This document shows positions 21,452-58,019 of a stretch of DNA of 64,000 nt, piece by piece. Made by a program: the position numbers and the translations under genes. The notes beneath the pieces were generated by a model that was given only the letters and a program-made list of their open reading frames with translations, did not search any database and was not told the origin of the DNA. Source of the stretch: Candidatus Dadabacteria bacterium (GTDB lineage: Bacteria; Desulfobacterota_D; UBA1144; Nemesobacterales; CSP1-2); assembly GCA_963805855.1 (NCBI GenBank), contig CAWDVW010000007.1:96001-160000 (forward strand), in the 5' to 3' direction. How positions within the stretch are numbered: the stretch's first letter is position 1; every line of letters begins with the position of its first letter.

Positions 21452-24400
21452 AGCTAGTTGACACATCAATTAAAAAACCAGTGAGCGTTGCAGTAGGCGT
21501 GATTTTCATAATTCTGTTTGGATTTATTTCCCTTTTTAAAATCCCGGTACAGCTAACACCCGATGTAGAAAAGCCAAGAATCACAGTTGATACAAGATGG
21601 GAAGGAGCCAGTCCCCAGGAGGTGGAAACAGAGATTGTTCGTAGACAGGAAGACGAGCTAAAAACGGTCGAAGGCCTGGTGGAGATGACCAGCGAGAGTT
21701 CTGATGGAAGTGGGACAGTTGTTCTTGAGTTTCTTATAGGTACTGATATAGACGCTGCACTTGTTGATGTATCGAATAAGCTCAATCAGGTGAGAGAGTT
21801 TCCCGAGGATGCTGACAGGCCTGTTATCAGCAGTGTGGATGTACGCGGAAGTGCAATGGCGTGGTTTATATTAAAACCGGTAGCGGGCAATGATGTTGAC
21901 ATAAATACATTCCATGATTTTGCAGACGATTTTATAAAGCCCAGGTTTGAACGTGTACCCGGCGTGGGTTCGTCAAATGTATTCGGGGGGCGGGAGCGTG
22001 AGATGCAGGTTATCGTTGATCCTGATGCACTGGCTGCAAGGGACATCACATTACTGGAGATGGCACAGGCAATTGATAAGGAGAATGATAACTATAGTGC
22101 TGGTGATTTCGATGAAGGAAAACGAAGGTATATCGTACGGACAATCGGCGAATATGAATCTCCTGAGGATATCGAGGACGTTATTATAACTCGCAGGAAC
22201 GGCGCACCTGTTTATGTTCGAGATGTGGCAAAAGTAAAGCTTGGATACAAGGATCCAGAGTTTGCTGTCCGACAAAACGGCGAGCCGGCAATAGCAATAA
22301 ATGCTGTCAAAGAAAGCGGGGCTAATGCAATTGAGGTTATGGATGGGCTTCGTCAGTCGATGAATGAGTTAAACAAAGGGCTCCTAAAAGAAAAGAAATT
22401 AGTACTTTTTAACGTGTATGATGAAACAAATTATATCAGGAGTGCGATCAATCTTGTCAAACAAAATCTCATAATTGGCGGTTTTCTGGCAATTGCTGTC
22501 CTGTTGTTCTTCCTAAGGAGCGGAAGCAGTACGCTCATAATAGCCACAGCCATTCCTATAAGCGTCATTGGCACCTTTGTTGTTATGGCTTTTCTGGGCA
22601 GGACAATAAATGTGATTAGCCTTGCCGGTATGAGTTTTGCGGTGGGGATGGTAGTCGATAATGCGATTGTGGTCTTAGAGAATATCTATCGTCATATGCA
22701 GATGGGAAAATCGCGTATCAAGGCATCGTACGATGGAACGGTGGAGGTGTGGGGAGCTGTGCTTGCAAGCACCCTCACCACTGCGGCAGTTTTTTTACCG
22801 GTCATTTTTATTAAGGAACAGGCTGGTCAACTATTTCGAGATATAGCGATAGCAATTAGCGTGTCGGTTATTCTGAGTCTTATTGTATCTATTACCGTGA
22901 TCCCAGCCGCATCCGCTAAGATCCTGAGTATAGCAAAAGAAACAAAAAGGGCGGCGTTTAGTAATCTTTGGGGTTTTGCACGCATAGGACACGATATTTC
23001 AGAGGGAATTGCAAGCCTTGTTCGAAGAATTATTGGAGACTCCAAAACACGTATTCTCGTTGTTTGTGCTTTTACTATCGGTTCGCTTCTTCTTAGCTGG
23101 CTAATGATGCCAAAAGCCGAGTACCTACCAGAGGGAAACCGTAATCTTTTGTTTGGTATCCTTCTACCCCCTCCTGGGTATAATATCGGTGAATTCACAG
23201 AAATTGGACAACGAATAGAAAGTGACTTAAAACCATATTGGGAGGCGGATGTTAATTCTCCGGAAGCGGAGAATCTGGACGGTCCTCCTATCGAACACTT
23301 CTTCTATGTGGCAAGGGGCCGTCAGGTGTTCATGGGGGCACGCGCTAAGGAACCGGATAAGGTGAAAGGCCTCATTCCGGTAATGCAGAAAACCCTGAGT
23401 AAAATTCCCGGTATGATAGCTATCGTCAGTCAATCCAGCATTTTTCAGAGGGGAATCGGTGAAGGACGCTCAATCAATATTCAACTCACTGGTCCTGAAC
23501 TGGAAAAACTTATTGGTCTCGGTCAGAACATCTTTTTCAGTGCGATTCAGAAAATTCCGGGCTCACAGGTACGGCCTATTCCGAGTCTCGATCTGGGCAA
23601 CCCGGAGGTCCAGGTCGTGACAGATCGTGTCAGGGCATCTGATGTAGGGGTCACAAATGAGGGACTCGGTTTTATGGTTAATGCCCTTGTTGATGGGGCG
23701 AAGGTAAGTGACTATCAAATCGCGGGTGACGAAATTGATCTTGTGCTTCGTGGTGAGGATAAGTATTCAAATCGAACACACCAGATTGAGGATCTTATGG
23801 TTAATACCGATAGTGGTAAGATGATCAATGTAGGTTCGGTCGCCGATGTAGTTGTTACCACGGGCCCCGAGCAAATCAATCATTATGAGCGTCAGAGGAC
23901 GATCGCAATTCAGGTAATACCACCTGAGAAAATGCCCCTCGAAAGTGCTATAGACACTATCAATAGTGAAATTCTGGGCCCGCTTCGCAGCAGTGGCGAA
24001 CTCGGGGGATCTTATAGTGCAGTCCTAACCGGCACGGCTGATGATTTAACGGTTACGCGAAAAGCCCTTCAGTGGAATTTTCTCCTTGCAGCTGTAATTG
24101 CTTATCTTCTGATGTCTTCGCTTTTTGAGAGTTTCCTCTATCCCTTTGTAATCATGTTCAGTGTTCCGCTTGCATCGTTTGGTGGATTTCTAGGACTATT
24201 ACTATTAAATATTTTTACCTATCAACCACTTGATATTCTTACGATGCTGGGCTTTATCATACTTATTGGGATAGTTGTAAATAATGCCATACTCATTGTT
24301 CATCAAGCGCTAAACCACATACGCGACGAAGGCTACGAAACCAGTGATGCGATAGTTGAATCCGTGAAAACACGTATTAGACCAATATTCATGAGCACAA

Positions 24401-55762: not shown

Positions 55763-56127
55763 ACGATGGATATGCAGGATATTTAAAGAGCTATGCGGAA
55801 CTCAGGCGCTCTGTCATCCTCCCGGCCCTGGAGAAGATAAGGGGCGAATTAGAACAAGATGGTTGGTATTGCTTCATAGCCGACTTAAACCCCTTTGATA
55901 AGATCGAAGGTATTACCCCGCGAATACCTGATAGATATGGCTTTACTTCACTGTCAATAATGGATATCGAGAACGGGATAGTCCAATATGTTTTTGTGTT
56001 TTTAGAAAACCACAGGGTAAGGCTTACGTCCGACGTATTTGAAGAAGATAAAGGTGTTTTCTTAGATTTAACCGAGGTCTCCCTTAATTCGGTCGAAGAG
56101 ACAGTAAAAATGATAATAAATCGTTAA
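55759..56127 (+). CDS. hypothetical protein
   Basis: GTGA overlap with yjbQ stop; plausible composition. Confidence 0.6.
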   Translation: MNDGYAGYLKSYAELRRSVILPALEKIRGELEQDGWYCFIADLNPFDKIEGITPRIPDRYGFTSLSIMDIENGIVQYVFVFLENHRVRLTSDVFEEDKGVFLDLTEVSLNSVEETVKMIINR

Positions 56128-56218
56128 TGGACTTCACTGAATCTTTTTTCGAAATGACCGAAAGTTTTTACTTTTCGACGGCACGAATAATCAAGATCTT
56201 GCACCTATCCAGATCAAA

Positions 56219-56301
56219 CTGAGCGTGTCGAAGTGTCTCCGCTGAGCCCGTCGAGGTATGAAAAATCATAAGCTATCTTATCCTTCGACGCGTCTGTACT
56301 G
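56219..56301. repeat. REP-like palindromes flanking the IS110 insertion
   Basis: CTGAGCGTGTCGAAG (56219), CTGAGCCCGTCGAGG (56242), CCTTCGAC (56282). Confidence 0.7.
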
Positions 56302-56381
56302 AGGAATTATGTTAAAAAGGGGTTAGGTACAGACGGTTCCCTTCTTATAATTAAAAGGAAAAAAATAAGGAGGGAACCGTA

Positions 56382-57446
56382 ATGAATAGACAAAGTATAG
56401 ATTACACAAATCAAGATTTTTTTCTAGGCATAGATGTGCATAAGAAGAGCTGGAAAGTAACGGTGAGGACTAACGGCATGGAGTTAAAGACTTTCTCCAT
56501 GGATCCATCACCGGAGCAACTGTACGGATATATGCACAAGCGTTATCCGGGAGGAAACTATCACAGTGTGTATGAAGCAGGATTCTGTGGGTACTGGATT
56601 GATCGGGAGTTAAAGAGGTACGGGTTTAACAATATAGTAATCAATCCGGCAGATGTGCCTAGTACCCAGAAGGAGAAATCGACAAAGACCGACAAGGTGG
56701 ATAGCCGTAAGCTGGCACGAGAGCTAGAGAATGGGTCATTGAGAGGGATATATGTACCGGATGAATTTCACCAACAATTGCGATCATTGTGCAGGCTGAG
56801 ATTTAAGGTGGTACAGTCGCAAACTCGGCTTAAGAATCGGATCAAGGGGTATTTAGCATTCTATGGTTATGTCATACCGCGCCATGATGAGATTGGTCAC
56901 TGGTCTGGGGGATTTATAAGGTGGTTAAAGACATTAGAGTTTTCATACGGGATGGGTAGGGATTATCTTAGGCTATGTCTCGAGGAGCTAGAAAGTCATC
57001 GAAGGCGTTTAGCAGAGGTAGTGAAGTTGGTGCGGAAGTATTATCGGGAATACGGGTTTGGGGAAGAGGTAAAGAATCTGCGTAGTGTGCCAGGGGTTGG
57101 TTTTGTAACAGCGATGACATTATATGGGGAACTGATGGATATGAGTCGGTTCAGGAGTATAGACGATCTTGCTAGTTATGCGGGGTTAGTGCCATCGGTA
57201 AGTAGTTCTGGGGAGAGGGAGAGCACTCTGGGGCTCAGCTTTCGGCGTAACCGGTATTTACGGTACTTACTGATAGAGGCAGCGTGGGTAGCGATACGAG
57301 AAGATCCGGCTTTGGGGCATGTGTTTAGTCAATTGATCAGGCGGATGACCAAGCAGAAAGCGATAGTTCGGATCGCCAAGAAGTTATTGAACAGGATAAG
57401 ATACGTGTGGAAGAATAAGGAGAGTTATGCTTATGGATTGATTTGA
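56382..57446 (+). CDS. IS110 family DEDD recombinase/transposase
   Basis: GIDVHK, YEAG, KTDKVD (DEDD), SVPGVG, YAGLVP...SSG catalytic Ser; intact 354 aa. Confidence 0.95.
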   Translation: MNRQSIDYTNQDFFLGIDVHKKSWKVTVRTNGMELKTFSMDPSPEQLYGYMHKRYPGGNYHSVYEAGFCGYWIDRELKRYGFNNIVINPADVPSTQKEKSTKTDKVDSRKLARELENGSLRGIYVPDEFHQQLRSLCRLRFKVVQSQTRLKNRIKGYLAFYGYVIPRHDEIGHWSGGFIRWLKTLEFSYGMGRDYLRLCLEELESHRRRLAEVVKLVRKYYREYGFGEEVKNLRSVPGVGFVTAMTLYGELMDMSRFRSIDDLASYAGLVPSVSSSGERESTLGLSFRRNRYLRYLLIEAAWVAIREDPALGHVFSQLIRRMTKQKAIVRIAKKLLNRIRYVWKNKESYAYGLI

Positions 57447-57469
57447 TAAGTAATAGGGACTGGATCTAT

Positions 57470-57620
57470 GAAATCTCAAACAATAAAGTGTGGACCGCTA
57501 TCGACTGGCTGCAAAGAAAATGTTTTACTGAGAGTGCGGCCACAGGTTTGAGTGGTTTAATGAATTTAATGCAGCACTGCAAAGAGGCAGCTGACTGTTT
57601 ATAACAGATTGATTCAAGAT
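57470..57620 (+). ncRNA. putative bridge/seek RNA of the IS110 element
   Basis: two stem-closed loops sharing a CTGCAAAGA..TGTTT-guide-AGA scaffold; guides match target halves and the left donor half; ends approximate. Confidence 0.75.
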
Positions 57621-57842
57621 AGGATTTATTTACACATGAGATACATTACATAAAAAAGCACGAAGGGATTCGTTTGTTCAAAGTTAAAGTTTTCCCTAAC
57701 ATAACCCTTGACTTTTTACATAACAGCCTGTCGAACTGCCTGTGATGAGTGAAATCAAACGCCTAGGACGCACGGTCTACGATAAAATCATGATATTTAA
57801 GTAGTGAAAATGCGTAAAAGACGTAAACGTCACGTATGCAGG

Positions 57843-58019
57843 TTATTCGTCCTCTATGTGGGCCTTTACCATTTCCAATAATTCAGGTGTCGGTTCCATA
57901 CCGTGGTCCTTTGCGTGGACTTTGGCCTGTTCCAGCACTTCTTCCTCGGTCTCTCCGCGGATAACGTGATTACATTCCGAACTCGGGTTTACCTTATTGC
58001 ATTGTATTATTTTGCCCAT
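57843..58019 (-). CDS. DUF1059 family small metal-binding protein
   Basis: C..C..IRGETEEEVL...HAKDHG; RBS GGAGG. Confidence 0.85.
   Translation of the reverse strand: MGKIIQCNKVNPSSECNHVIRGETEEEVLEQAKVHAKDHGMEPTPELLEMVKAHIEDE

Follow-up and report, generated by a model that had tools for sequence, protein, structure and literature searches.

Does the non-coding DNA downstream of a transposase gene in a Candidatus Dadabacteria bacterium encode the RNA that chooses the insertion site of its own element? The window analysed here is a stretch of 64,000 nucleotides (contig CAWDVW010000007.1 of GenBank assembly GCA_963805855.1, positions 96,001 to 160,000 of the forward strand), and a first-pass annotation of its sequence had proposed that positions 57470 to 57620 hold a readable bridge/seek RNA with guides matching the element's insertion site. 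Direct reading of the sequence finds every string quoted by that annotation in its place. The comparisons described below lead us to conclude, with a probability of roughly 0.9 for the explanation as a whole, that the element is an intact IS1111-group insertion sequence whose DEDD recombinase is most likely programmed by a bridge/seek RNA of ~130-150 nt, encoded just 3' of the gene in the same orientation.

The element, its ends and its class

The features that define the element are as follows.

56304 to 57724, + strand: insertion sequence proper, 1421 bp (1423 bp with one core copy)
56297 to 56303, + strand: left target half TACTG with the left core AG (56302-56303), read from the sequence
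57725 to 57733, + strand: right core AG (57725-57726) with the right target half CCTGTCG, read from the sequence
56307 to 56319, + strand: left subterminal inverted repeat TTATGTTAAAAAG, kept in homologues and containing TATGTT (56308-56313)
56382 to 57446, + strand: transposase/recombinase gene, 354 aa, with DEDD (RuvC-like) and Transposase_20 domains (open reading frame, Pfam, NCBIfam)
57608 to 57724, + strand: tail module with the right subterminal repeat CTTTTTACATAA (57712-57723) and TTGACT (57708-57713)

Pfam searches of the gene product identified an N-terminal DEDD domain (PF01548, residues 15-160, E = 1.1e-16) and a C-terminal Transposase_20 domain (PF02371, E = 1.2e-22). The NCBIfam model NF033542, 'IS110 family RNA-guided transposase', scores the protein at 216.8 bits against a cut-off of 140, and standard annotation thus already labels it an RNA-guided transposase. 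The translation contains GLVPSVSSSG, an instance of the GL-P----S(t)G motif that PMC11187229 describes as a feature of IS1111-type enzymes. The nearest solved relatives are distant, with phmmer E-values of 3.9e-5 for the ISCro4 transposase and 0.0046 for the IS621 transposase.

The ends of the element could be fixed because three copies were compared at both junctions. The source genome (3,114,175 bases in 9 contigs) carries these copies at 100% identity, one of them with a 1-nt deletion in the left non-coding part, and identity between copies reaches just a few conserved target bases past the element ends. On this comparison the left end starts at 56304, the right end closes at 57724 and a core AG flanks both sides. 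The window copy is bordered by ...CTGTACTG-AG|GAATTATG on the left and ...ACATAAC-AG|CCTGTCGAA on the right. The left junctions of the three copies read TCTGTACTG-AG|GAATTATG, CCTGCACTG-AG|GAATTATG and TTCACACTG-AG|GAATTATG, and the right junctions ACATAAC-AG|CCTGTCGAACTG, ACATAAC-AG|CCAGTCGAAGTG and ACATAAC-AG|CCTGTCGAAGCG. The left flank is TACTG-AG at the window copy and CACTG-AG at the other two; the right target half is CCTGTCG at the window copy and CCAGTCG and CCTGTCG at the others. The resulting target consensus is [T/C]ACTG-AG-CC[A/T]GTCGAA, with 3/3 copies in the same orientation.

Duplication at the junctions of the three copies is limited to AG, with no long target duplication. The proposal of AG as the core is borne out by both junctions of the element and extends across the flanks of its homologues, where AG is the last dinucleotide of the left flank in each of the 32 scored homologues and, in most, comes directly behind the right end. 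The dinucleotide is mirrored in three of the four guide segments of the window, the left-end guide being the exception. Three homologues (L103, L054 and L008) have GG rather than AG after the right end, with AG at the left junction. In L103 the 15-nt GGTTGAATAGGTGTT that spans the left junction (10 nt of left flank, then 5 nt from the start of the left end) recurs immediately behind the right end, starting from its GG. These GG junctions may be core mismatches or nested or tandem insertions.

IS1111 elements are reported to have their longer non-coding region 3' of the transposase gene, together with subterminal inverted repeats of 7-17 bp and short terminal extensions (PMC11187229 and PMC11208160). 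In the window, 278 nt of non-coding sequence lie downstream of the gene (57447-57724) versus 78 nt upstream (56304-56381). The repeats TTATGTTAAAAAG and CTTTTTACATAA, both conserved among the homologues, are inverted with respect to each other with one 1-nt gap, and the terminal extensions are GAA and C. The element is therefore an IS1111-type, IS110-family insertion sequence, in which every group feature that was tested was found. As a recombinase system it appears to be intact.

The predicted target-binding loop and its guides

The first of the two loops occupies the following positions.

57489 to 57544, + strand: target-binding stem-loop, with P1 (TGTGG/CCACA) and P2 (CCGC/GCGG) around an internal loop with a small central hairpin (minimum free energy fold, covariation)
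57501 to 57510, + strand: right-target guide TCGACTGGCT, the complement of top-strand core AG and right flank CCAGTCGA (flank comparison)
57526 to 57532, + strand: left-target guide TACTGAG, equal to the top strand of the left flank and core and pairing with the bottom strand (flank comparison)

Homologues were collected by their transposase and comprise 11 loci from species genomes, further matches in two genomes of the same phylum among 119 others searched, and 80 added metagenome loci of 45-61% protein identity. One of the two same-phylum genomes, G007, encodes a transposase 84% identical to the window protein. Overall, the comparison set holds ~40 homologues at 44-84% protein identity, and the relatives of the element in this collection come only from metagenome contigs and from MAGs labelled Ignavibacteria, Bacteroidota and Calditrichaeota, which marks a clade different from that of the published seekRNA elements.

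Folding of the window sequence by itself says little about the RNA. The fold of the whole 282-nt non-coding region, suggested by the first-pass annotation as a check, gave a non-significant z of +0.52 and an uninformative structure; sub-folds of the loops gave z-scores of -1.74, -1.10 and -1.43, not significantly better than shuffles. A search of Rfam 15 returned no match at E <= 1 within 56000-58000. The case for an RNA rests on comparison.

In an alignment of 27 first stem-loops, the nine pairs of the closing helix are formed in 95.9% of cells. Double-change cells number 42 versus 11.3 in shuffles, and 0/500 shuffles reach as high a value; the signal collapses once the partner is shifted by 1-3 columns. 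A simple regex search for the loop overlooked many homologues, and a covariance model built from the 27-loop alignment was used instead. This model found 46 loops in 90 sources (the window and 89 loci), all on the + strand and all adjoining the 3' end of the transposase match wherever both coordinates are known. Its match in the window covers 57486-57547 at 57.1 bits, and in the window's genome it has exactly three matches, which are the three element copies. Among 45 distinct model matches, 9/9 pairs show double changes and 96.0% of cells are paired, figures that lean toward the model because the alignment was fitted to it. U-G pairs are frequent (22 at one pair) and are compatible only with a + strand transcript. 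The central hairpin between the two guide strands is present in 37/46 loops and is marginal in the window element (MFE 0). Together these results show that the stems of the target loop covary as those of a + strand RNA. The inner strings assigned to this loop by the first-pass annotation, TGTGGACCGC (57489-57498) and GCGGCCACA (57536-57544), were correctly identified. The strings of the outer stem that it drew around them, CTCAAAC (57475-57481) and GTTTGAG (57546-57552), are likewise in place, but this stem is absent from the consensus structure of the homologues.

The right-target guide had been described as a 9/10 match to the reverse complement of its target. That figure applies to the window copy and the third copy; at the second copy (contig C7, ~641 kb) the match is 10/10, TCGACTGGCT being the exact reverse complement of AG+CCAGTCGA there. 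The mismatch in two of the three insertions falls on the third flank base. The identity of TACTGAG with the left target half is complete at the window copy (7/7) and reaches 6/7 at the other two. The complement of the top strand lies 5' of the complement of the bottom strand, which is the order given in PMC11187229 for IS1111 seekRNAs and the reverse of that of the IS110 type.

Covariation of guides with flanking targets among homologues was the decisive check named by the first-pass annotation, and it proved strongly positive for both target guides and both donor guides. The target guides were anchored on the invariant scaffold, the 5' guide at ...CT|GCA and the 3' guide at ...AG|NNTGCGGC. 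Two near-duplicates were removed (L080 of L076 and L048 of L047), and elements without a recoverable flank were excluded. Four visibly mis-anchored rows (L082, L069, L054 and L008) were retained, which lowers the cognate score. The right guide matches its own right flank at 7.61/10 positions and the flanks of other elements at 4.17 (n=33); the left guide matches its own left flank at 6.66/9 and other flanks at 3.98 (n=32). When flanks were permuted among elements, 0/20,000 permutations reached the observed sum in the right test and the left test alike, with the kinship among elements disregarded in all permutation tests. The position profile places the signal on the core, on right positions +1 to +7 (0.67-0.85 vs ~0.3) and on left positions -5 to -1 (0.66-0.91 vs ~0.27), with background levels outside these ranges. 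The guide reading across the family is thus 5 + 2 + 7 bp, and therefore the first base of the 10-mer originally quoted as the right guide lies outside the covarying part. Matching at free offsets was less sharp, with the own flank best or tied in 19/34 cases on the right and 10/33 on the left.

The same-phylum relative in G007 carries the guides TCGACTTGCT and TCCTGAG. Its left guide differs from that of the window by a single A-to-C, in agreement with its sites: the left junctions read CCTGAG|GAATTATG in 4/4 cases in G007 and ACTGAG in 3/3 cases in the window's genome. This guide change with matching sites amounts to a one-base natural retargeting. The right guide of the G007 relative fits its right flanks less well, at 8/10 for two solo tails and 6/10 for a short copy, both described below. 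In a separate homologue (L010 1501-2573) a frameshift has cut the transposase gene down to an ORF of 207 aa, and the right-target guide still matches the element's own right flank at 10/10.

In the window's genome all three copies are inserted in the same subtype of a REP-like repeat family built as ..ccgttcaCaCTGAG-N4-5-TCGAAGtgtgaacgg.. The pattern CTGAG-N3-5-TCGA[AG] has 140 matches in the genome, and CTGAGCNNGTCGA occurs 11 times versus 0 for its reversed control. The guides cover the variable parts of the repeat, namely the base before CTGAG and the spacer. A scan of both strands of the 3,114,175-base genome with the guide-predicted 15-mer TACTGAGCCAGTCGA found no unoccupied site at 14/15 or better and five empty sites at 13/15, whereas the occupied sites reconstruct to 14, 14 and 13; the two best genome matches are occupied copies. 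Since there is no empty site of at least 14/15, the element occupies the best available matches to its own guides.

The repeat itself is a palindrome (..CCGTTCACA-CTGAG-N4-5-TCGAAG-TGTGAACGG..), with CTGAG and TCGAAG conserved in its loop and a variable spacer between them. It is found at 56218-56260 and 57727-57749 and also near 22162, 30822, 34157, 40782, 40852, 41156, 53197 and 53866 of the window. Related repeat families in G007 (..GTCCTGAG-CGAAGCGTAGGAATAAAC..) likewise carry IS remnants.

An abundant target family of this kind, together with the unimpressive folding z-scores and the lack of an Rfam match, would also suit a reading in which the matches are not guides, and the non-coding region merely resembles the REP-like target by chance or holds a copy of it that was captured or has degenerated. 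However, a copied repeat would carry both halves in one orientation, and here the right half is reverse-complemented while the left half is direct. Furthermore, both halves include the core, which is a dual-strand signature, and the same layout recurs with unrelated targets in ~40 homologues, where it tracks the flanks of each. Because the enclosing stems covary and the guides track the flanks, this explanation is contradicted, and we consider it highly improbable.

The predicted donor-binding loop and a possible internal right end

The second loop was assigned the following parts.

57561 to 57616, + strand: donor-binding loop, consisting of a weak AT-rich closing helix, the left-end guide, hairpin P5 (57571-57597) and the right-end guide (alignment, compensatory changes)
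57562 to 57569, + strand: left-end guide GAATTTAA, partly complementary to GAATT of the left end and weak here (family permutation test)
57601 to 57607, + strand: right-end guide ATAACAG, equal to the last 5 nt of the element and the core (end variants)

This layout departs in part from that of the first-pass annotation, which had closed the second loop with TGAATTTAAT (57561-57570) and ATTGATTCA (57608-57616). Both strings are present, but their complementarity is imperfect (5 bp + 3 bp), and TGAATTTAAT is largely the left-end guide GAATTTAA, which had been missed. The scaffold CT-GCAAAGA had been taken as common to both loops, and CTGCAAAGA does occur twice, at 57509-57517 and 57577-57585. 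In the second loop, 'GCAGCACT-GCAAAGA' is instead part of the variable hairpin P5 (57571-57597). Relatives share a layout of an AT-rich helix, 8 nt, a TGCAG that opens the hairpin, and then ..T-N-ATAACAG. In constrained folds of homologues, P5 is formed in 28/37 (some misses being anchor errors) and the closing helix of the donor loop in 19/37. The basal pairs of P5 show compensatory changes (GCGGC/GACCG, GTGGC/ACCAC and GTAGC/ACTAT).

The claim that this loop holds a donor guide was upheld. The right end is nearly invariant in the clade, its last base being A in L079 and L104 and T in L060 and L071 in place of the usual C, and the internal 7-mer carries the same change as the variant right end in all four cases. 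On the other side of P5, the 8 nt preceding TGCAG form the complement of the core and of left-end bases 1 to 6. Bases 1 to 3 of the left end and the guide vary together as ATA/TAT, AAG/CTT, AAA/TTT, AGA/TCT, GCG/CGC and CTG/CAG. The left-end guide scores 5.66/8 against its cognate end and 4.05 against others, with 0/20,000 permutations as high (n=32), although kinship inflates this test most because many elements share the same AAG left end. In the window itself, GAATTTAA matches at 4/8 positions (AATT).

The weakness of the left-end guide in the window is one of several points that bear on a different division of labour, in which the first stem-loop alone is the functional guide (a short seekRNA), the second is a signal for processing or termination, or else a right end that has been duplicated or serves as an alternative, and the protein recognises the ends via the subterminal repeats. 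An 82-nt RNA with target matches only sufficed for ISEc11 transposition, as reported in PMC11187229. Additionally, the resemblance of the internal site to the true right end is not confined to the 7-nt guide (CTGACTGTTTATAACAG vs TTGACTTTTTACATAACAG), and in G007 a defective copy ends at the internal site and two solo tails start right after it. However, the GACTG within this resemblance pairs with GCAGC in a hairpin that shows compensatory changes, the 7-mer follows right-end variants in 4/4 elements, and the 8 nt before the hairpin follow the variable first bases of the left end. We thus judge it unlikely that the first loop acts alone, and note that this arrangement and the donor-loop reading are not mutually exclusive. 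The donor-loop reading is the one retained below.

The decayed forms in G007 deserve description. The short copy (L016, contig C68) has an internal deletion in the transposase gene and ends at the internal ATAACAG position, abutting a different REP-like repeat; it was treated as a defective derivative because of this deletion together with its end at the internal site. The two solo tails, of 114 and 117 nt, lie in REP targets (CCTGAG|GTTGG...ACATAACAG|CTTGTCGAAG), are ~75% identical to window positions 57608-57726, and start exactly at the base equivalent to 57608, directly after the internal AG. G007 also has two solo left ends of ~70-80 nt, joined to REP-like sequence at an internal AG; the decayed-form loci in this genome are L016, L023, L024, L123 and L124. 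No solo-tail or short-copy remnants were found in the window's own genome.

Since the donor-guide DNA (…TTTATAAC-AG, 57598-57607) is a copy of the end recognised by the RNA, it is conceivable, and we suggest it only tentatively, that this DNA itself acts as a second, internal right end. Recombination of the left junction with the internal AG would split the element into a guide-carrying short insertion sequence and a tail of ~117 bp, and would explain the short copy and the two solo tails of G007. If true, the guide-encoding locus would be a substrate of its own guide, and the clade would possess a built-in route to modular or decaying elements.

Expression, proposed mechanism and known systems

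A further feature lies immediately upstream of the transposase gene.

56333 to 56380, + strand: 5'-UTR hairpin with 16-nt arms, 94% complementary, burying the AAGGAGG ribosome binding site just before the ATG

In homologues, a corresponding hairpin covers AAAGGA. Such a structure would silence read-through transcripts. A third, partly complementary segment (81%) lies in the element tail at 57662-57677. In the predicted RE-AG-LE junction of a circular form, TTGACT (57708-57713) would serve as a -35 element 17 nt upstream of TATGTT (56308-56313) as a -10 element, and this arrangement is kept in 23/29 elements for which both ends are known. Within the linear element, a sigma-70 scan detected no promoter on the + strand. 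In the picture published in PMC11187229, the junction promoter drives the transposase gene and a long RNA as one transcript, which is then processed.

RNA data for the locus come from sequenced RNA libraries. A 256-nt contig from an oligo-dT RNA library matches 57332-57587 with four differences and runs from the 3' end of the transposase gene across the stop codon and through the target loop; it is a weak hint of transcription only, because such libraries can contain DNA. Three salt-marsh metatranscriptomes contain pieces of the transposase gene at 99-100% identity. Coverage by the RNA runs X1-X3 is limited to parts of the transposase gene, and 57630-57684 appears in no run; the uncovered stretches carry no weight either way. 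One 151-nt contig from X1 joins 56844 to 57730, skipping 885 nt, with 31 nt on the short side. It has three differences from the window in its transposase part, which is joined to the right-flank repeat, and probably stems from another, truncated copy, such as one carried by a related strain, or from the repeat through a repeat-mediated assembly artefact.

Taken together, the observations suggest the following mechanism. The 5' strand of the first loop would pair with the top strand, over the core AG and seven right-flank bases, and its 3' strand with the bottom strand, over five left-flank bases and the core. Both target guides together would then specify the 14-bp TACTG-AG-CCAGTCG, one spacer subtype of the REP-like repeat. 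The second loop would bind the donor on both strands, ATAACAG reading the right end and core and GAATTTAA partly reading the left end. By analogy with IS621 and ISEc11, excision would produce a circle in which the promoter TTGACT-17 nt-TATGTT arises at the RE-AG-LE junction. From this promoter the recombinase gene and the RNA would be transcribed together, and the RNA-protein complex would then act at the AG core to recombine a REP site that fits the guides with the junction of the circle.

The element is a new example of a class published in 2024 and brings no change to the known mechanism. This member is probably undescribed, a statement based on a literature search for the class; the list of Durrant et al. 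or the logos of Siddiquee et al. might include a relative. Its interest lies in a mapped natural bridge/seek RNA to which four guide segments, a core, ends and a 14-bp target could be assigned, accompanied by ~40 naturally retargeted relatives from environmental bacteria. These provide comparative material for the guide rules of IS1111-type elements, including the 5 + 2 + 7 bp recognition and the mismatches tolerated, and one more candidate for a compact programmable recombinase. Furthermore, the element shows the selection of one spacer subtype from a large family of REP-like repeats, and between two genera a shift of subtype goes along with the change of one guide base.

The closest published counterparts are ISEc11, ISKpn4, ISPa11 and ISPst6 (Siddiquee et al. 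2024, PMC11187229). The window element shares with them the DEDD transposase and the GL-P----S(t)G motif. It also shares with them the long non-coding region downstream of the gene, the subterminal inverted repeats, a stem-loop holding the complements of both strands in the same order and overlapping at the insertion point, and natural retargeting between relatives. The first stem-loop, at ~60-80 nt, fits the short seekRNA of 70-100 nt, and both loops together, at ~140 nt, fit the long form of 145-170 nt. The role of that long form is left open in PMC11187229, while here the donor-matching second loop is supported by covariation. Unlike the four named elements, the present one belongs to another clade and has a REP-like target, a distinction drawn from their descriptions, with our element known from its sequence.

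Similarly, IS621 (Durrant et al. 2024, PMC11208160; structures 8WT6-9) has a target loop and a donor loop, each of which reads both strands around a 2-nt core, and the same source predicts bridge RNAs in 93.0% of IS1111 elements, in the right end. Unlike in IS621, however, the RNA lies 3' of the gene here rather than 5', the guide order within the loops is reversed, and the proteins are only distantly related (phmmer E = 0.0046). The core of IS621 is CT, compared with AG here, and the subterminal repeats of the present element are long.

Insertion into repetitive extragenic palindromes is not unique to this element and has been described for the IS110-family ISPpu9 and ISPpu10 of Pseudomonas putida (PMC12288879). 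ISPpu10 forms a hybrid junction promoter. In ISPpu9, repeated end boxes give rise to alternative circles and solo modules are left behind; the short copy and the solo tails of G007 resemble these modules, the circles in our case being predicted. The separable module of ISPpu9 carries an sRNA that is dispensable for transposition (PMC12288879). Unlike in ISPpu9, the separable tail of the present element is located 3' of the guide RNA, and its internal break point coincides with the donor guide.
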